From Alphaproteobacteria bacterium (GTDB taxonomy: Bacteria > Pseudomonadota > Alphaproteobacteria > Rs-D84), in contig JAGBXO010000003.1 in assembly GCA_017629245.1 (NCBI GenBank), positions 65,897 to 129,896 of the forward strand: a stretch of 64,000 nucleotides of DNA. The letters run 5' to 3'. Positions 16,113 through 53,629 of the stretch are shown here, one piece after another. The notes under the pieces were generated by a model. The model did no database searches, was not told the DNA's origin, and saw only the letters and a program-made list of their open reading frames with translations. The position numbers and the translations under genes were made by a program. Numbering within the stretch: the stretch's first letter is position 1; each line of letters begins with the position of its first letter.

Positions 16113-17702
16113 CTACACAAATTTTTCTGGTATCAGATTACAAATGTTTTTCCAAATTCTGCGCAGTATGCTGGTGTCTGGGGCGTGTTTGTGTACGCGG
16201 GGTGTTGTGTCGCCTGGGCGACTGCCGGTCCAAACGGGTTTGTTGTTTTTGTTCAGTGTGACGCGCCATGATGTTTGTGTGTCTTTTATAATCATTTCAC
16301 GCAGTTTATCTGCGAAATCTGCGCTTTCAAAAATTGCGACATTTTCTGTGTTATAGTATGCGCTGCGTGGGTCCAGATTAAAACTGCCGATCCATGAAAT
16401 ATTGTCGTCAAAGACCATTGTTTTGCTGTGTAATACTGAAAAGCTGGATTGCTTTCTTTCGCGGTCATGTTCTTTGCCGCGCAGGTTTTCAGCAGATACC
16501 ATAAATTCATAAACGTCTGCGCCTGATTGTATTAATTGTTCGCGATATTTTTCCCATTTTGCGTAAACGGTTGGCGCGTTTGTAGAGGCTAGCGAGTTTG
16601 TTACAATCGTCATATGGACGCCGGACTTTTCTTCTTGCAACATATGCTCCAGTCCGCCTTGGCCTGGTACAAAGTATGCGGCAGACATATATACTGAATT
16701 TTTGGTTTTGTTCCACAGGTGTTGCAGTGCCAAAATGATGTCACTACGATAATTTTCCTTTTCTGTCATTGTCATTTCGACTTTTTCTGGTGGGTCGGCC
16801 AAGAATTTTCCGCGCCCCCAGCTGAAGTCGAATTTTTTCTGTTTAAAATCGCGTATTGCCATTGATATAATGGTGTTGTATCTGCGTACGTTTTCTGTGC
16901 TATGTTCTTCTAGGTTTGCAAAAGTTTTTTCCAGTTTTCGCATTGCGCGCTTTGATTTTGCTTTTGGGAAAACGGATGCAGGTATCGCCAGGTGATGATT
17001 CCAGTATTCGTTAAAACTCATTGTGGCGTATCGTGTCATGTCCCCCAGGAATAAAACGTCTGTGTCTGAAAAGTTAGATGCGGTTTCTGGATAGAAATAA
17101 TTGCTGCCAACGTTTCTGCCGCCAGTAATATATGCGATGTTGTCGACAATAAACAGTTTGTTGTGCATGCGTGAGTTTAGTCGATTAAAATCTGTTAAAA
17201 ATTGTGGGTAATACAGCAGTTTTGAACGGTTTGCGACTGTGTTAAAAATCTTGACTTCTATGTTCGGGTGTTGGTTCAACAGTGTTACATCAACAATATC
17301 TGATTTGGTGCCGTAATCGTCCAATAGTATTCGTATTTTGACCCCGCGGTCAGCTGCGTTTTTTAGTTCGCCAATCAAAACCTTGGATGTGAAGTCGTTA
17401 CTGTAAATATATGTTTGTAAATCAATTGTTTTTGTTGCCATTCGTGCAAAGGCGGATCGTATAATAAATGCGGATAGTCCGTCGTCAATCAGTGTTGCGC
17501 CCGATGTTTCGTTGTCTTGTTTCAGGTCTGTTGCGTAGTATTGTGCAATTGGTGTTTTGTATGGATTGTAATTGAAGTCGTTTGTGGTCACCTTTGGTGT
17601 GTATCCGTTTAGTCGTGTGTCGTTTGTTGTTGTTGGCACGGTTGTGCATCCCATCAGGGGCAGGGCTAAAATCCATATGGCGACTTTTTTTATCAGTGAC
17701 AA
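16113..17702 (-). CDS. Phospholipase D / cardiolipin synthase-family lipoprotein (two HKD motifs)
   Basis: The N-terminal lipobox is ALPLMGC. The HKD motifs are HNKLFIVD...GGRN and HSKTMVFDD...GSFNLD. Confidence 0.75.
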   Translation of the reverse strand: MSLIKKVAIWILALPLMGCTTVPTTTNDTRLNGYTPKVTTNDFNYNPYKTPIAQYYATDLKQDNETSGATLIDDGLSAFIIRSAFARMATKTIDLQTYIYSNDFTSKVLIGELKNAADRGVKIRILLDDYGTKSDIVDVTLLNQHPNIEVKIFNTVANRSKLLYYPQFLTDFNRLNSRMHNKLFIVDNIAYITGGRNVGSNYFYPETASNFSDTDVLFLGDMTRYATMSFNEYWNHHLAIPASVFPKAKSKRAMRKLEKTFANLEEHSTENVRRYNTIISMAIRDFKQKKFDFSWGRGKFLADPPEKVEMTMTEKENYRSDIILALQHLWNKTKNSVYMSAAYFVPGQGGLEHMLQEEKSGVHMTIVTNSLASTNAPTVYAKWEKYREQLIQSGADVYEFMVSAENLRGKEHDRERKQSSFSVLHSKTMVFDDNISWIGSFNLDPRSAYYNTENVAIFESADFADKLREMIIKDTQTSWRVTLNKNNKPVWTGSRPGDTTPRVHKHAPDTSILRRIWKNICNLIPEKFV

Positions 17703-17893
17703 TTTTGTCTTCCTTATCTTTTTGCGCGATTATAGTCCAAGGTTATCACGGTCGCAATAAAAATTCATTATATTTTTTAATAAATTGTGAAATGGTTCCT
17801 GTTGTCTAATAAATTGTGAATTTTTTTGTTTGTATAAATTTGTAATAAGTGTTAAAATTAATAACAAGAAATTATGGAAAGGAAGATTTTATC

Positions 17894-20143
17894 ATGAAAA
17901 GATTTGTTGCGGTGCTCGCTGGGTTGTTGACTTTACCTGCATTTGCAGAGGATGCGATTATATACAAAGAAGACGGTGTGCGTTCTGATGTTGTGTCGCG
18001 TAATATTGATGTGCCTGCATCTGCGACGGCGGCGGGGCGTACGTCTGGTCGTTCTGGTGCGGCGTCTCGTGGGGCGATATCGCGTGTTGTGCCTGCGGCG
18101 GCATCTGATATGACGACGGCGAATCGTAACGCGGCGTCTGGTCGTGTTATCGCCGCGGGGCGTGCGGGTGTTGCGGCACCGTCCGTCTCTGCGCGCAAGG
18201 CAGCGGCACGTGATGGTGCGGTCGTTTCGCGTACGGCGGTCGGTCAAGTGGGGGCAAAGCCTGCTGTGGCTGCACGTGTTGCAGCGCCATCGGCGCCACG
18301 TGTTCGTGCGCGTGCTGCGACAATGACGACAAATGTGTCCAAGGGCGACAATGTTGTGTCTGTGAATAATTCTTCCGATGCTCCGGCCGAAGCGGCTGCA
18401 ACTCCGGCCAGTGTCACTGCTGCAATGGAAAATTCGGCGGCACTGACATCATTTTGCAAGGCGCAATATACAGAATGTATGGATAATTTCTGTAATGTTT
18501 TGGATGATAACCAGGGGCGTTGTTCTTGTTCGAAAAATATTAAAAATTATGAAAAGACAGAAAATGCATTAAAGGCTGCGACCGAATCTTTACAGGATGT
18601 TGCACAGCAGATTCAGTATATTGGGTTAAGCAAAGACGAAATTGAAACCTTGTTCTCTCAGACCGAGGCTGAAATCCAAATGCAGGCAACAAGTGATAAT
18701 TCGCAGATAAAGAATGATTTGGACAAGATTAAGGGATTGATTGTTCAGGTGAAATCTGGTACTGCATCGTCAACAGAAATTGATACAGGTCTGTCCATGG
18801 ATTTGTCGGGCCTAATGAATTTTAATATCAGCAGTGCTGGTTTTGATTTGGGGTCCTTGTTTGGTACACAAACAGCAAATACAGGTTCGATCAGCAATCA
18901 GCGTGGTGAACAATTATATAAAACCGCGGCTGCGCGTTGTAAAACGGCGGTGTTGAATGATTGTCAGAGCCAGGGTGTTGATATATCGATTGTATCCAAT
19001 GCGTACGATATGGAAATTGATAAACAGTGTGTCGCGTATGAACGTTCTTTGACCGACGCAAACGAAGAAATGGTTCAAACGGTTCGCAATGCAAAAAGTG
19101 TGCTGCAGCGCGCGCGCTTGATGGTGGCCCAGCAAAAGAATGCATATGATTTGCGCGGTTGTGTAAATGCATTGGACGCATGTATGCAGGATGACTTTGT
19201 TTGTGGCAATGATTATGAAAATTGCCTAGATCCATCTGGTAAATATATTGTTGACGGCGAAGTTGTGGTTGGCTCAATGCCAGGGCAGACAGATTTGAGT
19301 GATTATTCTGGTATGTCTGGTGCAATGTACAGTGCCGACGGGTTGTATTCTACGTGGAATTATGGCAGTAGTAAAAATGCGTGGGGGGCGTCATCTGGTT
19401 ATGCCGAAGGCAGTCTTAACGAATATGTAACCAGCACGATGGGCGCCACACCGACCGGTGTTGGGGATACTATGTCCGAGTATTTACAGTACAAGATTGG
19501 CTATATCAAAGATAACAAAAGTTACGGTATGTGCGCATCTGTACTAAATAAATGCCAGGATTATACATATTCTAATGGTTCGTATTCACCAAAGAATCGC
19601 GTTGTCGAAGAATATTTAATGCGGACATTGGTAAAAATTAAAAATGCCCAGGATAACGTCTTGGCTGATTATGCAGAAACATGTATTGCCGATGTTTCGT
19701 CATGTCTGGGTGAAAATAATTATGATGAAACTGCCACTAACAGCAGCAAGTCCAAAATTGCAATCAACGCATGCCGTTCACAGATTATCACATGTATGTC
19801 TGTAAACGGTCGTGCGGATGCGGATCCAACACCTGCGGGAATGGCTGGCTGGGTCAGCAGTATTATGACAGAAACTGGTGGTGTCGGCGGTGGTGGCGTT
19901 ACTAACTGCGCGTCTGGGGGATCGAATTGTTATATTACAACACATTTGAATGCTTCTGGACAACCAACGTGTTCCGGTCTTGAAGCTTACTCTGTGCTGG
20001 AAGCGGGTGGAATATGTCCACCAACAGGAACCAGTTGTGCTGCGGTTGGAGGAATATGGTCAAATAATACATGTTATTGTACTGGTTCGTGGAAGGTGTC
20101 GCCGAATAGTCAACAAGGTTACACTGGCTATAAGTGTAGTTAA
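17894..20143 (+). CDS. Secreted Cys-rich protein, paralog A (signal peptide, Arg/Ala/Ser-rich low-complexity N-region)
   Basis: The signal peptide is MKRFVAVLAGLLTLPAFAE. The GC-rich repetitive region is followed by a conserved block FCKAQYTECMDNFCNVLDDNQGRCSCSKNIKNYEKTE and many conserved Cys. The start was moved from the ORF start to the signal-peptide Met. Confidence 0.7.
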   Translation: MKRFVAVLAGLLTLPAFAEDAIIYKEDGVRSDVVSRNIDVPASATAAGRTSGRSGAASRGAISRVVPAAASDMTTANRNAASGRVIAAGRAGVAAPSVSARKAAARDGAVVSRTAVGQVGAKPAVAARVAAPSAPRVRARAATMTTNVSKGDNVVSVNNSSDAPAEAAATPASVTAAMENSAALTSFCKAQYTECMDNFCNVLDDNQGRCSCSKNIKNYEKTENALKAATESLQDVAQQIQYIGLSKDEIETLFSQTEAEIQMQATSDNSQIKNDLDKIKGLIVQVKSGTASSTEIDTGLSMDLSGLMNFNISSAGFDLGSLFGTQTANTGSISNQRGEQLYKTAAARCKTAVLNDCQSQGVDISIVSNAYDMEIDKQCVAYERSLTDANEEMVQTVRNAKSVLQRARLMVAQQKNAYDLRGCVNALDACMQDDFVCGNDYENCLDPSGKYIVDGEVVVGSMPGQTDLSDYSGMSGAMYSADGLYSTWNYGSSKNAWGASSGYAEGSLNEYVTSTMGATPTGVGDTMSEYLQYKIGYIKDNKSYGMCASVLNKCQDYTYSNGSYSPKNRVVEEYLMRTLVKIKNAQDNVLADYAETCIADVSSCLGENNYDETATNSSKSKIAINACRSQIITCMSVNGRADADPTPAGMAGWVSSIMTETGGVGGGGVTNCASGGSNCYITTHLNASGQPTCSGLEAYSVLEAGGICPPTGTSCAAVGGIWSNNTCYCTGSWKVSPNSQQGYTGYKCS

Positions 20144-20147
20144 TAAA

Positions 20148-20172
20148 ATGCCCCACTTGGGGCATTTTTTGC
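20148..20172 (+). terminator. Rho-independent terminator after paralog A
   Basis: The hairpin ATGCCCCACTTGGGGCAT is followed by TTTTTT. Confidence 0.65.
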
Positions 20173-20230
20173 TTGTTCTATATTTGGGAATGTGATAGAA
20201 TAAAAGCAATCAAAGGAAAGAGAGTCTATC

Positions 20231-22456
20231 ATGAAACGATTTGTTGTATGTCTGGCCGGTTTGCTTGCGTTGCCTGCTTTTGCTGAAATTGCGCCACTCT
20301 ATTTTGAAGAATTTGAAGCGGTGGATACAGCCACAGTTGTACCAGCCGAAGAAGTGGTGACGGAACAAAAGGTGGCACCACAGACATCACGCAACAATCC
20401 GCGTGGTCGTGTCGCATCTCGTGATGCTGCGTCTGTGTCAAATCGTTCTGCAGCGGCAACGGGCCGTGCAAATGTTGCAACCCGTGCATCACGCAGTGGT
20501 GTTGTGTCACGTAACGCTGTGAATGGCGTGGCCGCGCGTAACGCGACCGCACGCAGTGCATCAAATGTTGCAGCGCGTCCATCACGTAATGCTGCGTCAA
20601 CAAATCAAATTGCGACAACACGTCGTGCAATGCAAAATGGTTCTGCAAATGTTGCGCGTGCAGGTGTCACAACAAATGATACGGTAAATGCGCCTATTTA
20701 TTCTGGAAACAGCAAGGCTAGCAATGTTGTTGCGCGCGCCAGTATGCGTGCCGGTTCGGGCGGGGCGGTTCGTGCGCGTATCCCAACAATTTCCGCATCT
20801 GTTGATAATACGGCGTCAACCGCTGTATCGGCGCCTGTTGCGACAAATGCGGCCAGTGCAACTGCCGCTATGGATGAATTGGCCCAGGTAACCGCATTTT
20901 GCAAGGCGCAATATACAGAATGTATGGATAATTTCTGTAATGTTCTGGATGATAACCAGGGGCGTTGTTCGTGTTCAAAAAATATTAAAAATTACGAAAA
21001 AACAGAAGTTGCATTAAAAGAGGCTACCGAAGCGTTGCAAGATGTTGCACAACAGATTCAGTATATCGGCCTGACCGGTGATGAAATTGAAACATTGTTC
21101 ACCCAGACCGAGGCCGAAGCCGCCATGTCTGCAAATACAGATAACAGCCAGTTGAAAAATGATTTGGATAAAATCCGTGGTCTGTTGGTTGGTGTAAAAT
21201 CTGGCACTGCCTCATCGACTGAGGTTGCAGATGGCCTGTCCATGGATTTGTCTGGTTTAATGAACTTTAATATTGACAGCACTGGTTTCAATTTGGGCTC
21301 ATTGTTTGGAAATACAACAACAGCAAACACAAATTCAATCAGCAATCAACGCGGTGAACAGTTGTACAAAACTGCGGCTGCGCGATGCAAGGCGGCGGTC
21401 TTAACGGATTGTCAGGCCCAAGGTGTTGATATCTCGGTTGTTTCTAATTCATATGATTTGGAAATTGATAAACAATGTGTTGCATACGAACGTTCATTGA
21501 CCGATGCGAATGACGAAATGAATCAAACCGTTCGCAATGCGAAAAGTGTTCTGCAACGCGCCCGCTTGATGGTTGCGCAACAGAAAAATTCATATGATTT
21601 GCGTGGTTGTGTAAATGCATTGGATTCATGTATGCAGGATGATTTTGTTTGTGGCAATGAATACGAAAACTGTCTGGACCCATTTGGCAAATATATTGTT
21701 GAAGGTGAAGTGGTGTTGGGTTCTGCGCCTGGTCAGAACAGCTATTCCGGTGCAGTTGTAGCGCCACAGTATTCGAAGGATGGGTTGTATTCTACATGGA
21801 ATTTTGGCAGTAATAATAATGCCTGGGGCAGCAACAACGGTGATTCACTGACTGCGTATATCGCCGATACAATGCCAGAAAAGGCTGACGGTTATATAAC
21901 CGAAACCAGTACGATTATGTCTGAATACTTACAGTACAAAATCGGCTATCATGAAGCTTCGACAAACAAAAATCATGGTATGTGTATGTCTGTCTTGAAC
22001 AAGTGTCAAGATTACACATATGACAATGGTGTATATCAGGCAAATAACCCGGTTGTACGTGAATATCTGACGCGCACACTGGTTCAGATCAAGGCCAAGC
22101 AGGATGAAATAATCTCGTCCTATGCCGAAGGTTGTATTGCAGATGTGTCATCATGTTTGGGTGAAAATAACTATGATTCTGTAAATGTTAATTCAACCAA
22201 ATCTAAGATTGCGATTAACGCATGTCGTTCGCAGATTATCACATGTATGTCTGTAAACGGTGATGCGACTGCTGATCCAACGCCAGCCGGTATGGCAGAA
22301 TGGGTTAACAATGTAATGGTCTCTTGTCCCGAAGGTACCAGTGTTGCAGCCGGCGGCATTTGTATTTGGCCAAATGCAATAACTAAGACCGAATGTGACG
22401 GATATTCTGGTGTATGGAATTCTGCATCGGGATATTGTGCATACAAGAAAATTTAA
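20231..22456 (+). CDS. Secreted Cys-rich protein, paralog B
   Basis: The signal peptide is MKRFVVCLAGLLALPAFAE. The central ~450 aa is nearly identical to paralog A, while the N-terminal repeats and the C-terminal ~70 aa have diverged. Confidence 0.7.
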   Translation: MKRFVVCLAGLLALPAFAEIAPLYFEEFEAVDTATVVPAEEVVTEQKVAPQTSRNNPRGRVASRDAASVSNRSAAATGRANVATRASRSGVVSRNAVNGVAARNATARSASNVAARPSRNAASTNQIATTRRAMQNGSANVARAGVTTNDTVNAPIYSGNSKASNVVARASMRAGSGGAVRARIPTISASVDNTASTAVSAPVATNAASATAAMDELAQVTAFCKAQYTECMDNFCNVLDDNQGRCSCSKNIKNYEKTEVALKEATEALQDVAQQIQYIGLTGDEIETLFTQTEAEAAMSANTDNSQLKNDLDKIRGLLVGVKSGTASSTEVADGLSMDLSGLMNFNIDSTGFNLGSLFGNTTTANTNSISNQRGEQLYKTAAARCKAAVLTDCQAQGVDISVVSNSYDLEIDKQCVAYERSLTDANDEMNQTVRNAKSVLQRARLMVAQQKNSYDLRGCVNALDSCMQDDFVCGNEYENCLDPFGKYIVEGEVVLGSAPGQNSYSGAVVAPQYSKDGLYSTWNFGSNNNAWGSNNGDSLTAYIADTMPEKADGYITETSTIMSEYLQYKIGYHEASTNKNHGMCMSVLNKCQDYTYDNGVYQANNPVVREYLTRTLVQIKAKQDEIISSYAEGCIADVSSCLGENNYDSVNVNSTKSKIAINACRSQIITCMSVNGDATADPTPAGMAEWVNNVMVSCPEGTSVAAGGICIWPNAITKTECDGYSGVWNSASGYCAYKKI

Positions 22457-22460
22457 AAAT

Positions 22461-22482
22461 TGCCCCTTTTGGGGCATTTTTT
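22461..22482. terminator. Bidirectional hairpin terminator (TGCCCCTTTTGGGGCA + T-run)
   Basis: It lies between the paralog B stop and the stop of the convergent minus-strand gene. Confidence 0.55.
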
Positions 22483-22810
22483 AATGGTGTGATATAAAAT
22501 GTAAAATCAAACTGGTAATAAATATAATTGTTATTACCCCCAGAATAATCTTTTGCGCATGGTGTGATTTATTGCCATCGCAGTGTTCACAATCGCATCC
22601 GCATTCACGGCCCACCATCCACCAAGATACCCCCAGCATTACGCCTGAGAATATAAACAGCCATGGTTCCATCCAGTGTGGCAATATATGAAAATGTGCC
22701 GCATCTGGCGCAATTAATCCAATGATGGCCAGAATCAATGGTAATCCACAGCAAAATATGTGTGGTGCAATTGTTGCAATTATTCCAATTTTAACAGCTT
22801 TATTCTTCAT
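22481..22810 (-). CDS. Small membrane protein with Cys-pair motifs (MerT/MerF-like metal-transporter candidate)
   Basis: The 109 aa product has three predicted TM helices. The first TM helix holds a CC pair (HIFCCGLPL) and a cytoplasmic-like CGCDCEHCDGN cluster follows. Confidence 0.4.
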   Translation of the reverse strand: MKNKAVKIGIIATIAPHIFCCGLPLILAIIGLIAPDAAHFHILPHWMEPWLFIFSGVMLGVSWWMVGRECGCDCEHCDGNKSHHAQKIILGVITIIFITSLILHFISHH

Positions 22811-22886: not shown

Positions 22887-23771
22887 TTGTGGTATAAAGA
22901 CGCCGTGTCAAAGAATTCTGATTTTTATATATCTACTGATTATGCATTCCAGGATGAATCCTCGGTATATCTGTTTACAAATGAAAATATTGCAGGATAC
23001 ATTCAGGGGTTAAATCCGGGGCGTGTATTGACAGTCGCATCATCTGGTGACCATGCGTTTGAAGCGTATCTGGCGGGTGCAACTCATGTTGATACCTTTG
23101 ATATTAATTCGTACCAGCGACATGTACTTGAACTAAAAACACATATGATACGTGGCCTGCCATATCATGATTTTATGGATTTCTTTTTTGATAAGAAAAA
23201 TTTTTTTAATCCAAAAATTATTGCAACGATATCCGATAATTTTTCCAAGGGGCTGCGACATTTTATGACCAAGTGCCAGGACAGTGGTACAAATATGTTT
23301 AAATATCATGCATCAATATCGCCAAATTATGATTTGCGTAATCTCTCATACGCATCCGAGGAATCTAAATACAATAAATTGCGTGAATTGTTACCCGAAC
23401 GCATAAACTTTCATCACTGTAAACTGGAACGTGTTTCGGCAAAATTTAATCAGCGTTATGATTTAATAATGCTGTCCAACATTTTTTATTATATGTATTC
23501 TGAAGAAACAATAACAGAATGTCGATTTGAACGATTTTATCACGAGGTTTTATATCCTTTGGCACGCAACAACCTGACCGATAATGGTAAAATTTGCTTT
23601 CAGTACATTTGGGGGGCAAAGCCCGGTGATTGGACAAATTTTATGGATTATTTTCAGTCGCAGCGTATAAAAAATGAATCGGTTAAATTTGCATCGCGCA
23701 CAGTTCTGTCGGCATTGCGGGATACGAATTGGGACAGTGTATTGATAATGTCGCGTCAACCCCAGAAATAA
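22887..23771 (+). CDS. DUF3419 (BtaA-like, SAM-dependent methyltransferase fold) family protein
   Basis: VLTVASSGDHAFEAYLAGATHVDTFDINSYQRHVLELKTHMIRGLPYHDF matches my recollection of the DUF3419 consensus block. Confidence 0.45.
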   Translation: MWYKDAVSKNSDFYISTDYAFQDESSVYLFTNENIAGYIQGLNPGRVLTVASSGDHAFEAYLAGATHVDTFDINSYQRHVLELKTHMIRGLPYHDFMDFFFDKKNFFNPKIIATISDNFSKGLRHFMTKCQDSGTNMFKYHASISPNYDLRNLSYASEESKYNKLRELLPERINFHHCKLERVSAKFNQRYDLIMLSNIFYYMYSEETITECRFERFYHEVLYPLARNNLTDNGKICFQYIWGAKPGDWTNFMDYFQSQRIKNESVKFASRTVLSALRDTNWDSVLIMSRQPQK

Positions 23772-23775
23772 TAAT

Positions 23776-23851
23776 TGGCATCCCCAGCAGGACTTGAACC
23801 TGCATCTAATTCTTAGGAGGAACTTGTTCTATCCTGTTGAACTATGGGGAC
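23776..23851 (-). tRNA. tRNA-Arg(CCU)
   Basis: The reverse complement GTCCCCATAGTTCAACAGGATAGAACAAGTTCCTCCTAAGAATTAGATGCAGGTTCAAGTCCTGCTGGGGATGCCA folds as a cloverleaf. It has a 7 bp acceptor stem, a D-arm, an anticodon loop CTCCTAA (anticodon CCT), a T-arm GCAGG-TTCAAGT-CCTGC and a terminal CCA. Confidence 0.8.
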
Positions 23852-23943: not shown

Positions 23944-25686
23944 GTGAATAATAAAAGGCAAAAAATGACAAAAAATACAGGTATGTATCACGCTACAATA
24001 AAACAGGATGAAGAAATATCAGAAATAATTGTGGATATTTTTAATCTGCCCTATGATAAATTTGACGGTGAAAATCCCCTGATTATACACGGTGATGTTG
24101 TATTGCGTGGCAGACGTGGTCGCACATTTCCTTTGTTGCGTAATGTTGTTATTTTGGGTACGTTGGATATCCGCGATTTTGATTTAACGCCAGATACTAT
24201 CTTGCCTGATAGGCTGGAAGAATTAAAGTGCGAATATTCTATAAAGTCATTGGCCGATTTGCCTGAAATTTTGCCTGCAAAAATTAAGAAAATCACAATA
24301 CGTCGTGCCTTGTTAAATAATATTAAAAAGGACAAGGATGACGCCTTGCGTATTGCGCGTCGCTTTGCCAATGCGCATCCGCGCATCGTTGTGACCGATG
24401 GAAAAACAACCTTGCGCGATTTATTGCGTGAAATAGAGTTGTCCTCAAACAAAGGGCCTCAACCTGTTGCACCTAGCACTAAAATAACACCGATTATTGA
24501 ATTACAGGCCAAGACAGATGAATACCTGTCAACAGATGAACTGTTAATGGCGTGTCGTTCTGCGTCCCAGGATTTATCTGGTATAAGTGATGCAGAACTG
24601 ACGCGTTATATTAAAAAAGCACGCTCTGCCAAGGCGAATTTGAAATTAGAACCTGTTGATTTAAAACGTGAAGATGGCGCGACAATTGTTTGTGTGCATA
24701 AAAAGTATCTTGATACGATTATTGATTATATATTGGCGCAAATTGAATCTGACCAGGCACGTAAAACAATAAAAAATACTGTAAAGAAACCCAAAAAAGC
24801 AAAAGTGGATGTGTTGGCTAATGAAAAAGTTAAAGAAAAAGTTGGGTATCAAATTGACGGAAAAACAGTTGTTGAAAAACAGATCAAGAAATATATTCCA
24901 AAGCAAGAATGGGGCAAAATCTGCAAGGCGTGTGGTGATGATAAAAAAATGCTGTTGGAAATTTTGCGTGATGTTGATTTTATAAACATAAACCCAACAG
25001 ATACTGCTGGAAAAAAAGTATATTATATCCAAGATGGGCAAATAAAAACATCTCGTACGCTGGAATTTAAAAGTGCAACATGTCTGTCCCAGGGCTTCAA
25101 AAGTCTTAACAGTAAACAGCGCATTGTTTGGGCGGTTTCTGGTGATGCCTTTGTGTGTATAGATTTTTTCCCAGAACATGAACATTCAATAGATGAATAT
25201 AAGGGCGTTATTCGTGATGCGCGCATTGATTTATCAAAAATGGATTTGGCGTCATTTTATAATGTTGCGGATTTAATCCGCGAATTGACCGATGATGGTA
25301 ATGGTGGGCCTGATTTTCCACCCGCTGGTCCGCAACCTATGGATGCGCCAAAAATTGATACATCGAATGTCGGGGGAACAGACGATAAAAGCGACGCAAA
25401 AATAAAAAAGGAACCAATTGATATTTCAAAGACAAATTTTGTTTGGACAGAATTGTTTACCATGAATATGCGTTTGGTACAGAATATAAAATACACAGAC
25501 ATGGCACGTGATGCGCTGTTGAAAAAGATGCAGAAAGAAACAAGTACAGAAAAGTTACTGTGTATGGCAGATGATTTGACAAAAAATTTGCAGCGCAAAA
25601 AAGCATATGAAGATGCGATAGCCAAACTGAATTTGTTAAATAATCAGTTGAAGGAATTGAAAATTGACCTGGAAAAAGAACGTTAA
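23944..25686 (+). CDS. Hypothetical protein with a C-terminal coiled coil (580 aa)
   Basis: The ORF is long and has a terminator hairpin at 25694-25720. No recognisable domain was found, the central region is Lys-rich, and there is no signal peptide. Confidence 0.5.
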   Translation: MNNKRQKMTKNTGMYHATIKQDEEISEIIVDIFNLPYDKFDGENPLIIHGDVVLRGRRGRTFPLLRNVVILGTLDIRDFDLTPDTILPDRLEELKCEYSIKSLADLPEILPAKIKKITIRRALLNNIKKDKDDALRIARRFANAHPRIVVTDGKTTLRDLLREIELSSNKGPQPVAPSTKITPIIELQAKTDEYLSTDELLMACRSASQDLSGISDAELTRYIKKARSAKANLKLEPVDLKREDGATIVCVHKKYLDTIIDYILAQIESDQARKTIKNTVKKPKKAKVDVLANEKVKEKVGYQIDGKTVVEKQIKKYIPKQEWGKICKACGDDKKMLLEILRDVDFININPTDTAGKKVYYIQDGQIKTSRTLEFKSATCLSQGFKSLNSKQRIVWAVSGDAFVCIDFFPEHEHSIDEYKGVIRDARIDLSKMDLASFYNVADLIRELTDDGNGGPDFPPAGPQPMDAPKIDTSNVGGTDDKSDAKIKKEPIDISKTNFVWTELFTMNMRLVQNIKYTDMARDALLKKMQKETSTEKLLCMADDLTKNLQRKKAYEDAIAKLNLLNNQLKELKIDLEKER

Positions 25687-29253: not shown

Positions 29254-30768
29254 ATGAAGGTCAGGACAATTTCATTTTTAACGGGTATTTTTGCGCCTTT
29301 GGCGGTGCTTGCCGCGAACGAAGGTGTTCCCGCATACTATCAAATGACCGCCGCACCAACTGCAAACCAGGCGGCTTATGAACGTTATGCAGCCCGTGGA
29401 TACACAAAATATGTTGGTCAGTCTGGATCAAAACAGGTTTTAAATTCTCAAACGTATTCATATCAGGTTCCGCGCGCCCAGGTGCCAACAATTGCGGGCA
29501 CAATGACCCCAAATGGTATTGCGCTGCCTGCGGAAAATGAACACGCAACACATATTTATGCGGGTTATTCACGTCGTTTTGCGGATTTTGAATTTGAAAC
29601 GGGTGTAAATTCCATTCTGGAATGGGATGACATGATTTGGAACGAAATTCGTGTCGGTGCCAAACATAATTTCAGTCTGCGCGATTTTGATATGTCTGTA
29701 TTTGGCGAATATGCCTATGGTGACATGTCACATGGCGGATTGTCTATGGACTATGACCTAAAGCCTTTTGATGAAGCGGATCAGACATATGGGATTTTTA
29801 CAATTTCTATGGGTGACCAATCTGGGCGCAGCAATCATTTTCGCTTTGGAATATCGGCGCATCATGTATGGGATATTGGCGGATGGAAGTTGTCGCCGAC
29901 ATTTGGCTATGAAATATTCAAACACAACTTGGAAATGTCCAATCATTACTATCCGAACCCTGGGGTATATCTGCCATTAATGACGGATAAAGGGGAATAT
30001 GTCTTTGGTGATGATGTTGGTAATTATTATTCAGTTATTCCGGGCACTGCAACCCCTGATACCTGGTACCAGGTGTGTATGTCCCCAGAAGATATAAAGG
30101 TTGTCACAAATTCACCAAACGGTTATTACGACGGTTTTGGTCAGTTGGGGGATACGCTGTACACTGGTGACTATGAAATTGCGATGGGTACGGTACCATG
30201 GGGGGTAAGTGCCGGCGAATGCGTAATTATTGGTGGTGACGGCCCCGTTATTGTAGAAGGGACAACGCATATCTATAACACAACTTGGTCTGGATTTTTT
30301 GTTGGGTTGGAAATTGAAAAGCAGATGACATTAAAAGATAATCTGCGCATGTATGTTCAGTTTGGTCTGCCCAAATATTCATCAGAAGGTATCTGGCCAA
30401 ATCGTACCGACTGGCAACAAAACCCCAGTTTCCTGGACGAAGGCAGCAATGGCGCATATTCATACTCTGCAGAACTGGAATACAACTACAAATTATCCGA
30501 CCGCGTAAAATTATCGCTAAAGGTTGATACAAATTTATTCCATGTTGGCAATATCGGTGGTGAATTATATGTCGCAGAATACAGTCAGTATGCCGTTGAT
30601 GAAAACGGTCAATATATAACCCAAGAAATTATTGGTGATGATGGGAATATCTATTATATCCCTGTGCTGGAAACATATCCGGCCTATACCGAACAGGTAT
30701 CTGATTCCTTAAAGCGCGCCACATGGCAGTCGTTTGGTCTGCATCTGGGCGTTAAGTATGCGTTTTAA
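29254..30768 (+). CDS. Putative outer-membrane beta-barrel protein
   Basis: The signal peptide is MKVRTISFLTGIFAPLAVLAA. The C-terminus ...GLHLGVKYAF ends in an aromatic residue and the protein has alternating hydrophobic strands. Confidence 0.5.
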   Translation: MKVRTISFLTGIFAPLAVLAANEGVPAYYQMTAAPTANQAAYERYAARGYTKYVGQSGSKQVLNSQTYSYQVPRAQVPTIAGTMTPNGIALPAENEHATHIYAGYSRRFADFEFETGVNSILEWDDMIWNEIRVGAKHNFSLRDFDMSVFGEYAYGDMSHGGLSMDYDLKPFDEADQTYGIFTISMGDQSGRSNHFRFGISAHHVWDIGGWKLSPTFGYEIFKHNLEMSNHYYPNPGVYLPLMTDKGEYVFGDDVGNYYSVIPGTATPDTWYQVCMSPEDIKVVTNSPNGYYDGFGQLGDTLYTGDYEIAMGTVPWGVSAGECVIIGGDGPVIVEGTTHIYNTTWSGFFVGLEIEKQMTLKDNLRMYVQFGLPKYSSEGIWPNRTDWQQNPSFLDEGSNGAYSYSAELEYNYKLSDRVKLSLKVDTNLFHVGNIGGELYVAEYSQYAVDENGQYITQEIIGDDGNIYYIPVLETYPAYTEQVSDSLKRATWQSFGLHLGVKYAF

Positions 30769-35900: not shown

Positions 35901-36296
35901 GTGAAAACCTTTTCCTTCTTTTGTGCCATCAGCGTAGCTGTTTTTATTCACATATGCACTAGGACAGTTTTCTGCTTTTCTTTTTTTTGTGTACATTTGT
36001 TTGCTCCACCTTTAAAAAAAACACCAAGAAAAAACTTGGTGGTTGGAGCTTGAGAACAATACCGAGGATTGCATGCCTTATTCAATATATTCAGCATACT
36101 CCAACCAATTACGATGGAGAGTTGTCCACGTTTCCGTGGACACTCGGTTCTGGGTTCTCACGCCCATCGCAGAAACACCCTGCGACAACATTTATAATAA
36201 TTTGTATTATTTCAAAAATCAATACAAATAAAATCATTGAATATTCAGCGTTTGTTTGGTATTCTTTCCCCTGTACAGTATATAAAGGATGTATTA

Positions 36297-37256
36297 ATGG
36301 CTATCAAAATACGCGATTTCGAAGTTCGCCTAACGCGCAGCAAAGAAGAACGAAAACAGGTTCGTCAATTGCGCTATCAGGTTTTCTGTCTGGAAGAGGG
36401 GGCAGGTGCAACTGAAGAGCAGCGTGCCCTGGGCGAAGAGTATGATGCCTATGACCGTTTTGCTGAATACATGGCGGTATTTCATAATGGTCGTGTGGTT
36501 GGTACATATCGTATCATCGACAGACGGGCCGCCGAAAAGATGGATGGTTTCTATACAGAAAACGAATTTAATATATCCAAGATAAAAAAATATCGTGGCA
36601 ACATTGCTGAAATGTCGCGCGCATGTGTTGATCCAGAATATCGTGATAACGCATTGGTTTTGCGTATGTTGTGGGCAGGTTTGGGTGAATTAATTGTGCG
36701 TCGTAAAATTGGTGTTGTGTTTGGTGTGGCGTCGTTCGTTGGAACAAAGCCTGCGCGCAGTGCCCAGGCAATATCATATTTGTACTATAACCATTTATCG
36801 CCATCACGTCTGCGTGCAACTGTGTTGCCTGAAAAATTTGCAGAAGGTGTAAACCCAAAACTGGCGCGCATGAATATTTTTCCACGTGAATTTGTTGATG
36901 CAGCAGATGCGCGCACTGAAATGACCCCATTGATTAAGGGGTATTTGCGCCTGGGGGCATCATTTGGTCGTGGTGTATTCGTTGATGTGCCGTTTAATTC
37001 ATACGATGTGTTCGTTGTTGTTGAAACACGCAAAATGGATGCGGCGTATCAAAAGCATTTCTTGGGCCGCGAGAATGCGCTGGGCGCACCAGAAGATGAA
37101 AAAGAAAAAATCATCAAAACAGTGGGAAAAATTCTAACATTCCCAGTTGTTGGTCCGTTCAAGGCGGTGCGTGCTGTTGTTGACTTCTTGTTGCGCGAAG
37201 ATGCAGATGATGCAGAATATATCGAAGATATCGAAAAATCAGAAACCGAAGAATAG
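36297..37256 (+). CDS. olsB: Ornithine lipid N-acyltransferase OlsB-like (GNAT/Acetyltransf_5)
   Basis: The start MAIKIRDFEVRLTRSKEERKQVRQLRYQVF and the length of about 320 aa fit OlsB. An olsA-like gene lies immediately downstream. Confidence 0.6.
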   Translation: MAIKIRDFEVRLTRSKEERKQVRQLRYQVFCLEEGAGATEEQRALGEEYDAYDRFAEYMAVFHNGRVVGTYRIIDRRAAEKMDGFYTENEFNISKIKKYRGNIAEMSRACVDPEYRDNALVLRMLWAGLGELIVRRKIGVVFGVASFVGTKPARSAQAISYLYYNHLSPSRLRATVLPEKFAEGVNPKLARMNIFPREFVDAADARTEMTPLIKGYLRLGASFGRGVFVDVPFNSYDVFVVVETRKMDAAYQKHFLGRENALGAPEDEKEKIIKTVGKILTFPVVGPFKAVRAVVDFLLREDADDAEYIEDIEKSETEE

Positions 37257-37260
37257 TATC

Positions 37261-38082
37261 ATGGCAAAATTACGCAAACAAAATATATTTAATACAACAA
37301 CCGCGGCAATTAAGTTTGTGCTGTTTTGGATAATGGTTGTGGTCCAGTTGCCAATATTGCTATTGTTGCCACGCGGTGATTTATCTGTGCGCTATATGCG
37401 TGTATTTATGTGGGTTTTGGTAAAACTGGCGGGGGTGCGCGTTATTGTTCATGGTAAATTGTCTGATGCGCGTCCACTGATGATTGTATCTAATCATATT
37501 TCTGTGTTTGAAATTGCGACATTTCCATCTGTTTTCCGGGGCAGTTTCATTGCCAAAAAAGAAATGGAAAATTGGCCATTGGTCGGTTGGGTTGCGCGAA
37601 AGTTTGGTGTAATCTTTGTTGACCGTCGTCCATCGCATGCGCGTGATGCGCTGGCGGTGGTGCAACGTGCGGTCCAAACCGTTAAGTATCCGATGATTTT
37701 ATTTCCCGAAGGAACAACGACAAACGGCGCATATGTAAAACCATTTAAAAGTACATTATTTAACTTTGTTGAAAATTCTAATGTGACTGTGCAACCAATG
37801 GCAATGCACTATCGCTATCGTGACGGTTCTGTAATTGATGAACAGACACTTGCTGATCACTTCGCATATTTTGATAACAAGAAAATGGATGTGGGGCCAA
37901 AATGCAAACGCGAACGCAGTGCCTTTGGCCAGGTGTTTCATATAATGATGTTGGGCGGATTTACGGTTGAAATAACATTGCTGCCACCACCACCCCTGAC
38001 GGGGTTGGACAGAAAGCAGATTGCTGACATACTGCAAAAACAAGTGTCAGAAAAATACATGGAATTAAAAGATAAAAAATAA
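37261..38082 (+). CDS. olsA: Lyso-ornithine lipid O-acyltransferase OlsA-like (PlsC family)
   Basis: The acyltransferase motifs SNHISVFE (HX4[D/E]) and FPEGTTTNG are present. The gene is adjacent to olsB, as in the rhizobial olsBA operon. Confidence 0.6.
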   Translation: MAKLRKQNIFNTTTAAIKFVLFWIMVVVQLPILLLLPRGDLSVRYMRVFMWVLVKLAGVRVIVHGKLSDARPLMIVSNHISVFEIATFPSVFRGSFIAKKEMENWPLVGWVARKFGVIFVDRRPSHARDALAVVQRAVQTVKYPMILFPEGTTTNGAYVKPFKSTLFNFVENSNVTVQPMAMHYRYRDGSVIDEQTLADHFAYFDNKKMDVGPKCKRERSAFGQVFHIMMLGGFTVEITLLPPPPLTGLDRKQIADILQKQVSEKYMELKDKK

Positions 38083-50620: not shown

Positions 50621-53600
50621 TTAGAACACATATCTCATCGATAGTGTACCTGCGTGTGAAGTATAATCAGCGTGCCAATTAAAATCATAATTCACACCGA
50701 TTTGCAACCTGTCTATAACTTCGACAGATATACCGCATCCAAACTCAATCCCAAGTTCTCTGTCCAAATCATTGTCAATATATAACTGATTTGCATTTGG
50801 TAGTTGAATTAGTGTCTTTCCGCCATCTACCAATGCGTTATAGGTCGCATTAATGTATAAATTTTGATTTATAGACGTATTATTCACTTTTACAACATCT
50901 GTTAAGCCAACCCCTGCAACCAATGTCATAATATCGCTGTTAGTTTTATCGTGCTTAATCTTCAACGTGTCTGTATAATCATTCTGTGTGATATGGTACA
51001 CTCTAACGCCAGCATTTGGTATGATTGCAATATTGCGTTTGGCCGCCACATCCGTAAACATATGTCCAACGGACAATTGCAGCCCAAACGTATCTGTATC
51101 ATATGATGAATTTAGTGCACGATTCAGCAGATTCTGATTTTGTTGAAAATCAGACATTTCATACATCGCCATTGCGTTATATATCCAATTATCATGATTG
51201 TATTTACCATATGCAAAGAAATTATTGCTATCAACCTGACTATCTGTGACATTTGCGTGCATATTAGTTTTCGAAAAACTATACCCTAAGCCAACAGTTA
51301 AATTTTTTGATATACGACTATCTGCACCAATCATAACACCAAATCCATCCGCATCAAAAGAGATTTTATTATTATGTTTGAATGTTTGGTATAGACCACG
51401 CACCCATAAATCAGGCTGTACGTTATATATATCGCCACCAGAACGACCGTTAGCACTACTATTATCCATAAGCAATAATTGCAATGTATTAAATAGTGTG
51501 TCTGCATGTTGAATCAACATTGTCGTTGTTGTCGCTGACAAATCTCCAATATCACGCATTATAGCACCAATAGTATTATCTCCTAATTGGGCCATGCGAT
51601 TAATATCCTTGGCTACAGAATTAAAGTCTTCATTATTTTCAGATTGTGGCAACATCGCCATCAATATTGCCGCACCTGTTTCTGTAGTGTTAAGTGCATC
51701 TGCAACCTCCGATATGGATTTACGGTTATAAGAAATATTCAATACATTACCTGCATTGGTTATATCCATCGTAACATCGTAGATTGAATTATTTGACTGT
51801 ACAATATTCCAGTCCCCATCTGACAAATCAACACTATTTGCAATAGTGTGTGTTAATTGGCCCGATATAGTGCCATCAAATAAAACACCAACATTCAAAT
51901 TGTTTGTTCCCTGTAATGCGATATTGCCATCAACACTAATGCTATCAGATTGTGCATCAATATACATAGCCAATGTTGCTCCGTCTGACATATTTATATT
52001 GTTTCCAGAGACATTTGCACCATTAATATTTAAGGTCGCATTTTGTGCAATATTGATGGTGCCATCATTCCCCGTCATACCACCATTAATGTTTAACGTC
52101 GCATCTTGTGTCACATTGATAGTACCAGAATTAAAGATATCATTATCGTATACTGACGTACCAATTTGTGTCTTGTTGTTCATAAAATTATTTTGCCCAC
52201 GCATGGTTATTGTGCCAGAATTCCAAATCGCACCACCGCCTGTTAGTGTATCTTGTGAACCAATAACACCGTTATTTAAAAAGGTTGAATCTGTCATGGA
52301 AATTGTACCCATATTCCAGATTGCGCCACCTTGAGCAGTTCCTTGTTTTGCGTTGGCATAGTTTCCATTAAATGTCGCGGTCATATTGTTGATGTTTGCA
52401 ACCGCAGAGCCGTTATGTATCGCACCGCCCTGTGCCCACGATTTGCCATGCTTATTTTCTGCATAATTATCAATAAAATCACCAGACAATTCGCCAATTA
52501 CGCCGTATGAATATATTGCTCCACCCAATCCTGCAACCACATTGTCTGTATCCCAGTTTCCCGATGCATAGTTACCTCGGAACATTACATCCTGCATTGA
52601 TTTGACGGTTGTTGCAGCATTTGAAGCAGTATAAGACGTTGAATAAGCACCACCATATGCGACACCGTTACTATTTACTGCACGGTTTTCAATAAAATCA
52701 ACATTTTTTATCAGGTTAATTAATCCGATCGCACCATTATTCGTTGCAAAGGAATTCTTTATACCACCACCCATCGCGGGTGCATTTTTACTTTCTGTCT
52801 CTGCGACATTCCCTTGGAACAAAGAATTAGAAATTTCTCCGATTATGTTATAGTTGTCTAATGCTCCACCCGACGCATGACCTTCGGGTGCGTTTGTGCC
52901 AGGTTTATATGTTTTATTGTCGATAAATCGTGTATTTGTAATAACACCTATTTCAGAATACTGATTGTTGTCAATAGTTGTGCCGTGTCCACCGCCCTTG
53001 AAATTGGCCTGTGCTGTCATGACATTATCGATAAAATCTACATTTTCAATTCTACCTATTTTGGATGCATTATATATAATTGCACCGTGCGGAGCACTTT
53101 GTGCCGTTTCAAATCGATTGCCTGTAAAAACGGTATCCTTGATAGTAGCAATTTCACCAGCACCCAAATTTGAAATAAGACCACCCCATAAGTCATTTTT
53201 TGGAATAGATCCAACAAAATTATCATTGAACCTAGAGTTTGATATTTCTAAAATTTTACCTTTGTTCAAAATGGAGGCACCACCCCCGACTTCACCAGAA
53301 GACACAAATAATGTATTGTTCAATATCCCAACATTATCTAATGCCAATGTGCCATTATTTATAATCATACGTGGCGTAACGATATCAATTGCAGCCGCTG
53401 GATTGGTCCATGATGTAATATTTTTCAACACAACAGATTGAGATGCAGCAATATCTATATTGGCGGACACTTCAGAAGTGGTTGTAGACATATCCAACAC
53501 AACATTTGCATCCATTTCACTAAGTGCAGCTTTTAATGCCTCGAAAGACGTTAATGTATCGGTCGCATAGCATGGTGCTGCCATTATAGTCAATGCTGTA

Positions 53601-53629
53601 AACGGCATAACAATTCTTGCAATTTTCAT
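50621..53629 (-). CDS. Autotransporter with a Pmp-like GGAI-repeat passenger domain
   Basis: The signal peptide is MKIARIVMPFTALTIMAAPCYA. GGA[IL] repeats recur (GGAIYS, GGAIHN, GGAIWN, GGALDN). The C-terminal beta-barrel ends ...MRYVF. The product is 1002 aa. Confidence 0.75.
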   Translation of the reverse strand: MKIARIVMPFTALTIMAAPCYATDTLTSFEALKAALSEMDANVVLDMSTTTSEVSANIDIAASQSVVLKNITSWTNPAAAIDIVTPRMIINNGTLALDNVGILNNTLFVSSGEVGGGASILNKGKILEISNSRFNDNFVGSIPKNDLWGGLISNLGAGEIATIKDTVFTGNRFETAQSAPHGAIIYNASKIGRIENVDFIDNVMTAQANFKGGGHGTTIDNNQYSEIGVITNTRFIDNKTYKPGTNAPEGHASGGALDNYNIIGEISNSLFQGNVAETESKNAPAMGGGIKNSFATNNGAIGLINLIKNVDFIENRAVNSNGVAYGGAYSTSYTASNAATTVKSMQDVMFRGNYASGNWDTDNVVAGLGGAIYSYGVIGELSGDFIDNYAENKHGKSWAQGGAIHNGSAVANINNMTATFNGNYANAKQGTAQGGAIWNMGTISMTDSTFLNNGVIGSQDTLTGGGAIWNSGTITMRGQNNFMNNKTQIGTSVYDNDIFNSGTINVTQDATLNINGGMTGNDGTINIAQNATLNINGANVSGNNINMSDGATLAMYIDAQSDSISVDGNIALQGTNNLNVGVLFDGTISGQLTHTIANSVDLSDGDWNIVQSNNSIYDVTMDITNAGNVLNISYNRKSISEVADALNTTETGAAILMAMLPQSENNEDFNSVAKDINRMAQLGDNTIGAIMRDIGDLSATTTTMLIQHADTLFNTLQLLLMDNSSANGRSGGDIYNVQPDLWVRGLYQTFKHNNKISFDADGFGVMIGADSRISKNLTVGLGYSFSKTNMHANVTDSQVDSNNFFAYGKYNHDNWIYNAMAMYEMSDFQQNQNLLNRALNSSYDTDTFGLQLSVGHMFTDVAAKRNIAIIPNAGVRVYHITQNDYTDTLKIKHDKTNSDIMTLVAGVGLTDVVKVNNTSINQNLYINATYNALVDGGKTLIQLPNANQLYIDNDLDRELGIEFGCGISVEVIDRLQIGVNYDFNWHADYTSHAGTLSMRYVF

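Follow-up and report, generated by a model that had tools for sequence, protein, structure and literature searches.

The chlamydial proteins OmcB and OmcA are Sec-exported, cysteine-rich envelope proteins of a host-dependent diderm with a small genome, and OmcB has a basic N-terminal segment that is implicated in the binding of a polyanion (heparan sulfate). We analysed two adjacent genes whose products recall these proteins and which lie in a stretch of 64,000 nt, the window, from an alphaproteobacterium of the order Rs-D84 (assembly GCA_017629245.1, contig JAGBXO010000003.1, positions 65,897 to 129,896 of the forward strand). Gene 1 (17894–20143, + strand; 749 amino acids (aa); MBO5739706.1, J6R52_01410) and gene 2 (20231–22456, + strand; 741 aa; MBO5739707.1, J6R52_01415) were delimited from their open reading frames (ORFs) and the public record, in which both products are 'hypothetical'. 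An earlier reading of the same DNA (hereafter the original prediction) had described them as tandem paralogs with a conserved Cys-rich core, and the overall identity of 57% found by BLASTP bears this out. Our analysis shows that they belong to a lineage-specific, Sec-exported and strongly constrained protein family (family A) made of a disordered Arg-rich tail, a helical body with 18 Cys and modular ends. With a probability of about 0.45, we interpret the pair as tandem paralogs of an envelope or surface family in which the polycationic tail would act as a tether, the helical body would be stapled by disulfides and the variable tips would be exposed.

The likeness to OmcB does not extend to sequence or domains, since no chlamydial Cys-rich or DUF11 model matched in Pfam or NCBIfam at E ≤ 1. 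OmcB is beta-rich whereas the core of the window proteins is helical, and the Cys look like intramolecular staples between helices rather than contacts of an intermolecular lattice as in the chlamydial proteins. An elongated helical bundle stabilized by disulfides, the build proposed for the window proteins, is found in trypanosomes, and two such proteins, a metacyclic invariant surface protein (5vtl) and the haptoglobin-haemoglobin receptor (4e40), gave the highest target-normalized template modelling (TM) scores among the Foldseek matches listed from the Protein Data Bank (PDB). Neither match was significant (E = 1.8 and 9.1; probability 0.33 and 0.08; target-normalized TM-score 0.30–0.32; root-mean-square deviation 15–16 Å). 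The trypanosome three-helix-bundle proteins are eukaryotic and anchored by glycosylphosphatidylinositol, and the relation is at most an analogy of fold class. The twin Cx3C/Cx9C proteins of the CHCH type share with the window proteins the placing of Cys pairs one or two helical turns apart, but differ in spacing (x6 here), size and cellular compartment, and there is no homology. Surface proteins with Flg_new repeats (PF09479) resemble family A only through the repeats of its long-tailed members; the window proteins contain none, and the tail and core of the family are unrelated to surface proteins of the internalin or Bacteroides type. Strong ribosome binding sites (RBSs), terminators and a polycationic tail are at most indirect hints of an S-layer or surface coat.

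Searches with both proteins gave no significant match in Pfam, NCBIfam or PHROGs. PDB sequences, searched with phmmer and with the family profile, likewise yielded none, and neither PDB nor BFVD contained a significant structural match by Foldseek. Weak matches to FTA4, LcrG and SMC were below the cut-offs and were set aside as coiled-coil noise. The claim that no known domain is recognizable therefore held in all these libraries, and neither profile nor structure searches assigned the proteins to a well-characterized housekeeping family. No account of the protein family was found in the literature on Enterousia and Rs-D84. It is undescribed: all named members are annotated as 'hypothetical protein', and neither Pfam nor NCBIfam has a model for it. 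Exported envelope or surface proteins that are modular, Cys-rich and variable at their ends are, on the other hand, familiar as a kind.

Layout of the two proteins

Both proteins start with an 18-residue signal peptide of the Sec type (MKRFVAVLAGLLTLPAFA at 17894–17947, + strand, with a signal peptidase I type site, in gene 1; MKRFVVCLAGLLALPAFA at 20231–20284, + strand, in gene 2) that follows the pattern MKRFV..LAGLL.LPAFA. The two are near-identical, as predicted, with 16 of 20 residues matching, and they fit the consensus of 83 aligned homologues (MK..LL.LPAFAEVAP), in which the LPAFAE motif is kept family-wide. No lipobox was found in either of them: the gene 1 signal peptide has no Cys, and the FVVC at residues 4–7 of gene 2 is in the wrong context, its Cys7 being absent from 71 of the 83 homologues. 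Both proteins are exported, as had been proposed, by the Sec route and as non-lipoproteins. A short acidic and aromatic head follows the signal peptide (EDAIIYKEDG in gene 1, EIAPLYFEEFE... in gene 2).

The region between the signal peptide and the core (residues 19–180, 17948–18433, + strand, in gene 1; residues 19–216, 20285–20878, + strand, in gene 2) is of low complexity, Cys-free and very basic, with 16–20 Arg, 2–4 Lys and a pI of 11.2–11.4 in the two proteins (16 Arg, 4 Lys and pI 11.2 in gene 1; 20 Arg, 1 Lys and pI 12.0 in gene 2 once the acidic head is left out). Such a segment was found in all 229 full-length homologues examined, with a conserved composition (Arg 10.7% versus Lys 1.3%, no Cys) and a length of 174 ± 29 aa; it is always present because the core starts at residue 170–300 in nearly every full-length member, and both window proteins fall within the ∼150–280 aa that we take as characteristic of family A. 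Arginine recurs every 4–6 residues in these homologues (modal Arg-Arg spacing 5; most frequent triplets ASR, AAR, SSR and VSR), and because Lys exceeds Arg in the cores, arginine is specifically selected in the tail. The degenerate repeats of the original prediction are not true tandem repeats: Tandem Repeats Finder detected none at the DNA level in the N-terminal stretches, and what remains is a compositional periodicity of Arg. AlphaFold2 was run on the core and tip of gene 1 with an 89-sequence alignment and, separately, on full-length gene 2. In the latter model, residues 14–205 have a predicted local distance difference test (pLDDT) score below 50 and are without secondary structure, which supports the view that the Arg-rich segment is intrinsically disordered.

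The DNA that encodes this segment is conspicuously GC-rich, as had been noted, with a GC content of 0.61 in gene 1 and 0.54 in gene 2 against ∼0.42 in the cores and the neighbouring genes. The excess is confined to the first and second codon positions, where GC content (GC1 and GC2) is 0.63–0.69 while that of third positions (GC3) is 0.35–0.46, like the rest of the genome (gene 1: GC1/GC2 0.69/0.67, GC3 0.46), and is therefore a consequence of the Ala, Arg, Gly and Val content. A foreign origin of the stretch was rejected in view of its normal GC3. The antisense ORFs in this region are best read as by-products of its composition, since it is poor in stop codons and there is evidence for a real sense frame.

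A central conserved block of about 450 aa had been predicted; by our measurement it spans ∼480 aa with 78% identity between the two proteins (gene 1 residues 181–659, 18434–19870, + strand; gene 2 residues 217–694, 20879–22312, + strand), and in BLASTP the high-identity block is nearly continuous from FCKAQYTECMDNFCNVLDDNQGRCSCS to ...TPAGMA.WV. This core is acidic (pI 4.5 in gene 1 and 4.45 in gene 2, net charge −21 to −25) and richer in Lys than in Arg. It has 18 Cys, and its opening motif is C-x6-C-x4-C-x9-C-x-C; both window proteins fit this description and score 856 and 886 bits against the hidden Markov model (HMM) of family A. The 18 Cys are essentially invariant among 83 sequences, down to ∼30% identity. 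The sole substitutions occur in one homologue, which has lost positions 224 and 394 (gene 2 numbering) together, and the remaining apparent losses come from a single homologue that is gapped at the last four Cys columns. The claim of more than 20 conserved Cys was thus roughly right, with 18 in the core and up to ∼4 that can be aligned in the tips. Several Cys are spaced i/i+7 on helices (core positions 8/15, 243/250/257/264, 367/374, 417/424 and 447/454), and nine intramolecular disulfides probably staple the helical bundle.

Most of the gene 1 core was modelled with pLDDT >90. The model is essentially helical, with few short strands, two very long helices (model residues 184–233 and 389–427) and a small strand-containing insert. 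One conserved stretch, G.S.DLSGL..F.....GFDL.SLFG...SISNQRG (residues ∼295–335 of gene 1 and ∼330–375 of gene 2), has pLDDT <50 and is a candidate for a partner-binding, interaction or membrane-contact loop.

The C-terminal tips measure 90 aa with 8 Cys and a Gly-rich linker in gene 1 (19871–20140, + strand) and 47 aa with 4 Cys in gene 2 (22313–22453, + strand). The original prediction held them to be unrelated to each other. We found, however, that both carry a knot motif, C-x3-[GS]G-x-W-x(5)-C (CAAVGGIWSNNTCYC and CDGYSGVWNSASGYC in genes 1 and 2, respectively). Of 64 mid-length tails of the family, 31 contain a looser form of it (C-x2-5-[GSN]G-x-W-x3-9-C), which occurs in none of the cores. 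The number of Cys in the tails is almost always even. The gene 1 tip was modelled with pLDDT <50, and that of gene 2 with ∼61–72 and small beta-hairpins.

Tips differ between proteins whose cores are nearly the same. Between gene 1 and its orthologue in L003 (this and similar labels denote related loci), identity is 96% in the core (synonymous divergence, dS, 0.54) and 43% in the tip (dS 2.5). The tip that L003 has instead, which the close homologue P0002 also carries, is similar to the gene 2 tip (..CPSGTYSVGGIC.. versus ..CPEGTSVAAGGIC..), and the orthologues in L004 are tipless. Tips are thus swapped or lost between orthologues that are 83–96% identical; they behave as cassettes that vary by gain, loss and exchange of modules and not by faster point substitution. 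Across the family the length beyond the core ranges from 4 to 1,672 residues, with 71 of 159 members essentially lacking a C-terminal tail. The long tails are extremely rich in Cys (as many as 121) and include reiterated units, TACTNAGGTWNGTTCEC among them. In a scan of 17 long-tailed homologues, 6 showed Listeria-Bacteroides (Flg_new) repeats above the Pfam cut-off and 2 showed Cys-rich Ephrin_rec_like modules; both are typically cell-surface or extracellular domain types.

The lengths first given for the two proteins, 764 and 741 aa, need one correction. Both ORFs lie where they had been placed and the second length stands, but the 764-aa version of gene 1 starts at an upstream GTG (17849). 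The start is almost certainly the ATG at 17894, which yields 749 aa, because a strong RBS (GGAAAGGAAG, 17876–17885, + strand) lies 8 nt 5' of this codon, the GTG falls in a probable −10 element and the public record also has 749 aa. The element in question (TGTTAAAAT, 17850–17858, + strand) is, judging from its sequence, probably the extended −10 promoter element of gene 1. Its counterpart TGATAAAAT is the most conserved k-mer in related intergenic regions upstream of the gene (between it and a phospholipase D (PLD) family gene), being present in 52 out of 67; the related 8-mers TGATAAAA and GATAAAAT occur in 50–52 of these regions, and an RBS k-mer of the AGAAGGGAAG type is conserved in 35–38 of the 67 loci. 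Gene 1 is followed by an intrinsic terminator (20145–20176, + strand; 10-bp stem with 5 GC pairs and a T-run) and gene 2, which has its own RBS (AAAGGAAAGAGAG), by a bidirectional terminator hairpin (22461–22476) shared with a convergent small membrane-protein gene. With an RBS and a terminator each, the two genes are therefore separate transcription units. The divergent promoter region also contains an exact 14-bp direct repeat, TAATAAATTGTGAA, at 17778–17791 and 17807–17820 (29 bp apart). It was rejected as a conserved operator, as the TTGTGA half-sites are not kept at this position in 12 other loci inspected.

Distribution, selection and duplication

A search with the core retrieved 1045 clusters at 90% identity (601 at 50%), and a scan of one genome per species gave at least 575 encoding loci. 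Titles and sources were considered for the 80 matches listed among these loci: all are metagenome-derived bins, mostly Candidatus Enterousia, 'Alphaproteobacteria bacterium' or 'uncultured Rickettsiales', although a few titles are generic or apparently mis-binned, and isolate names that state a source point to the gut of ruminants, other mammals, birds and humans. Named matches belong to Enterousia or the order Rs-D84, from gut or termite-gut metagenome-assembled genomes (MAGs), while a distant branch (33–40% identity) consists of 'Rickettsiales' or alphaproteobacterial MAGs. Single genomes of ∼0.9 Mb contain several paralogs with different tips. Enterousia is a genus of the order Rs-D84 with genomes of 0.75–1.0 Mb. 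It has neither a tricarboxylic acid cycle nor respiration, its metabolism is very limited and standard transporters are few; dependence on a partner has been proposed as its way of life (PMC12306168).

The ratio of non-synonymous to synonymous divergence (dN/dS) was computed by region with the pairwise Nei-Gojobori method. It is 0.04–0.13 in the core, 0.12–0.14 in the Arg-rich segment of the closest pairs and up to 0.5 in deeper pairs, and 0.19–0.5 in the tips. The core is under strong purifying selection; its identity across the genus, 60–70%, is on a par with that of neighbouring housekeeping genes. The diversifying selection suggested by the original prediction was not found, as no region had dN/dS >1 in these pairwise comparisons; since dS is saturated in the deeper pairs and no site models were used, it is unsupported rather than excluded. 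The variation that can be demonstrated consists of insertions and deletions in the tail and exchange of C-terminal modules, and it is mainly in tail length and tip module that the two window copies differ.

A single copy at this position is the rule, and additional copies lie elsewhere in some genomes. Tandem pairs are confined to the closest clade (L001–L008), with one further, separate pair in L042. When the cores were placed in a neighbour-joining tree, without support values, the first copies of the window, L003 and L004 and the second copies of the same loci formed separate clades, and the duplication therefore predates these species. The copies of L006, L007 and L042 group genome by genome; because the second copy has retained the family-typical head AEIAPLYFEE... 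there too, gene conversion of the cores is favoured over repeated duplication.

Neighbouring genes and a second family

The PLD-family lipoprotein gene that had been placed upstream on the opposite strand was found there (16113–17702, − strand; 529 aa), divergent from gene 1. Its product has two PLD-domain matches (Pfam PLDc_2, E = 2.6e-34, and PLDc), both HxKxxxxD (HKD) motifs are intact and the lipobox reads LMGC. Against the cardiolipin-synthase models of NCBIfam it scored far under the cut-offs. A PLD gene divergently adjoins the family-A gene in 65 of the 73 related loci that have enough upstream sequence, while the other neighbours shuffle, none of them holding one position in more than 25 of the 73; within Enterousia it is the only neighbour that the family retains. 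The link is not universal, as the two genes are not adjacent in the distant clade, and there are extra family-A copies without a PLD neighbour. In L082 and L084 an extra family-A copy follows rplU-rpmA; a tblastn search of 81 loci for rplU-rpmA beside the extra copies that lack PLD returned no matches (empty output).

A second family (family B), encountered in loci of the distant clade, consists of deeply divergent paralogs of ∼690–740 aa (E = 3e-22 to the family-A profile) that have an Arg-rich N-terminal segment and the opening motif C-x6-C-x4-C-x9-C-x-C, as in family A. It is widespread (1169 matches, including Ca. Enterousia intestinigallinarum), and in all three loci examined (L082, 4660–6732; L084, 7001–9214; L085, 5214–7379) its gene is adjoined by a gene for PagL, a lipid A deacylase. 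From their family assignment, PLD and PagL are predicted to be envelope-lipid enzymes. It is suggestive that a gene for a predicted hydrolase of envelope lipids accompanies each of the two paralogous families, but the argument is one of guilt by association.

The window is a piece of ordinary chromosome, with rpoB, rpoC, plsX, rpsA, an adenylate-kinase-family gene, pyk and mraZ and, further on, genes for an M13 peptidase, a radical SAM enzyme and a Pom-type porin. The organism is a diderm with lipopolysaccharide (LPS)-type genes (autotransporter, Pom porin, SLT and a glycosyltransferase cluster that includes a WbsX-family enzyme). The autotransporter (50621–53629, − strand; 1002 aa; beta-domain E = 6e-30) indicates a diderm with a conventional type V route of surface display. 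The Cys-rich pair does not use this route, as no beta-barrel match was obtained for it in Pfam although the true autotransporter of the window was detected. The Pom-family (Protochlamydia outer membrane protein) porin-like gene (29254–30768, + strand) and the genes for the M13 peptidase and the radical SAM enzyme stay together as a conserved block in many of the related loci.

Some other genes of the window may be mentioned. The small gene convergent to gene 2 (22481–22810, − strand) encodes a 109-aa Cys-rich membrane protein with weak MerT/MerC-like matches, whose first hydrophobic stretch contains a CC pair and which also has a CGCDCEHC cluster. Its homologues usually adjoin the PLD gene in varying orientation and side (upstream on the + strand in 25 loci, other positions in ∼15), and its link to the pair is loose. 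A DUF3419-family (methyltransferase-like) gene (22887–23771, + strand) also lies near the pair; the related loci L035, L036, L066 and L071 have between one and three copies of it in tandem. In the window it is followed by tRNA-Arg(CCT) (23776–23851, − strand). The next gene (23944–25686, + strand) encodes a 580-aa protein without a match in Pfam or NCBIfam and with one weak PHROG match (E = 9e-4); its syntenic counterparts are 23–50% identical versus 60–90% for the flanking genes, which marks it as a fast-evolving, lineage-specific gene. Bearing on envelope lipids, two overlapping genes (36237–37256 and 37147–38082, + strand) encode a GNAT protein of the Acetyltransf_5 type (an OlsB/FeeM-like N-acyl amino acid synthase) and a PlsC-type acyltransferase, a pairing typical of ornithine-lipid synthesis. 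A phage-type integrase (56305–57474, + strand) and then a type I restriction R subunit (59719–62790, − strand) may represent a small mobile or defence island at the end of the window.

Interpretation and alternatives

If the proteins are envelope or surface proteins as proposed above, the signal peptide would be cleaved after Sec export and the Arg-rich tail (∼170 aa) would tether the protein to a polyanionic component of the envelope. LPS or lipid A phosphates, or anionic phospholipids of the outer membrane, would be the preferred ligands because of the links to PLD and PagL. The disulfide-stapled helical body would form a protease-resistant stalk, and the variable C-terminal modules its exposed, ligand-binding end, in contact with a partner cell, a host surface or mucus. 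Several points weigh against this interpretation. The location in the cell is inferred only; no lipobox, beta-barrel or known sorting signal was recognized in either protein, so that a Sec-exported helical protein would have no recognizable route to the surface of a diderm. The disulfides are deduced from the invariance and spacing of the Cys only, in an organism that is an anaerobe without a respiratory chain. The PLD association, absent from the distant clade, may reflect lineage-specific synteny and not functional coupling, and the two window proteins have tips that, at 47 and 90 aa, are short and were modelled poorly.

Because no device for crossing or attaching to the outer membrane was recognized, the principal rival is a periplasmic scaffold, in which the tail would bind peptidoglycan or an anionic membrane face, the body would be a strut and the C-terminal modules would bind periplasmic or outer-membrane partners, the whole being a functional stand-in, in a minimal genome, for envelope tethers like Lpp, OmpA or Pal. 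A Sec signal unaccompanied by any recognizable device for surface export is what such a protein would have; conservation of the core at housekeeping level (dN/dS 0.04–0.13, 60–70% identity), a housekeeping context (rpoBC, plsX, rpsA, pyk and mraZ here, rplU-rpmA in the other clade) and the 71 of 159 essentially tailless members agree with it too. However, tails of up to ∼1,670 aa with Flg_new and Cys-knot repeats are typical of extracellular proteins, rapid swapping of tips between near-identical orthologues would be odd for an internal strut, and several differently tipped paralogs per 0.9-Mb genome fit poorly; we consider a scaffold conceivable but rather unlikely. A role as lipid-handling partner of PLD or PagL, with an apolipoprotein-like body and a cationic tail that bind membranes or LPS and a joint function in remodelling of the cell's own outer membrane or in capture of lipid from a partner or host membrane, would account for the PLD gene staying in place in 65 of 73 loci while other neighbours shuffle, for the independent adjacency of PagL and family B (3 of 3 loci) and for a PLD protein that has kept its HKD motifs and lipobox. 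Arginine, which suits phosphate binding better than lysine, is also what one would expect in such a tail, and the scarcity of standard transporters in the lineage, together with its very limited metabolism (PMC12306168), speaks for this role too. Against this stand the nature of the argument, which is guilt by association only, the missing PLD link in the distant clade and for the extra family-A copies, the lack of detectable similarity to lipid-binding families and the cardiolipin-synthase scores of PLD far under the cut-offs. Such a partnership thus appears unlikely.

Other explanations have far less in their favour. Colicins and polymorphic toxins share a three-part layout to which the order of disordered N-terminus, long helical body and variable C-terminus is superficially similar, so that a released effector could be imagined with a translocation segment, a receptor-binding body and a C-terminal 'warhead'. 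Unlike colicins, the window proteins have a Sec signal peptide and 18 Cys; their tips are tiny Cys knots or, in the family, adhesin-type repeats, with no toxin domain found by Pfam; what lies downstream is the paralog (for gene 1) or a convergent gene for a membrane protein (for gene 2), not an immunity-like gene; and the family is encoded by a conserved, syntenic chromosomal gene with many tipless members. The signal peptide, the type of tip and the absent immunity gene largely refute a bacteriocin-like reading, which we regard as very improbable. It had also been considered that the GC-rich N-terminal stretches might be mis-assembled, frameshifted or non-coding, as the local jump in GC content and the multiple antisense ORFs could suggest. 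We can practically dismiss such an artefact: identical proteins are present on 6 contigs (the two places read are separate assemblies), more than 1000 homologues share the architecture, the segment occurs in 229 of 229 homologues with dN/dS of 0.12–0.14 in the closest pairs, GC3 is normal and the frame is continuous from the signal peptide to the core.

A more far-reaching version of the surface interpretation, which we hold to be quite improbable as a whole, is that families A and B together are an undescribed class of surface proteins whose stapled helical stalk is held by the Arg-rich tail on the cell's own LPS or anionic lipids, with PLD and PagL either tuning this anchoring or acting together with the proteins on a partner membrane, and that they form an apparatus for attachment and lipid acquisition. 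If true, A and B with PLD and PagL would let alphaproteobacteria with 0.9-Mb genomes live off another gut cell. The two independent neighbourhood links to outer-membrane lipid enzymes are directly testable. The family also offers a helical fold with 18 invariant Cys and without a significant match in the libraries searched, and a natural example of selection for arginine, not lysine, in a long extracytoplasmic disordered region encoded by an AT-rich genome. Even if it were merely a lineage-specific structural protein, definition of the family would give a name to more than 1000 'hypothetical proteins'.

Candidatus Enterousia and other Rs-D84 are widespread, uncultured gut alphaproteobacteria with genomes <1 Mb, and what is at stake is the route by which they would interact with a partner or host (PMC12306168). 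That genomes so small keep several copies of 2–7 kb makes family A an obvious candidate when the machinery of the lineage for its envelope or for contact is sought, and the combination of a body conserved at housekeeping level with a freely swappable outer end strengthens this case.

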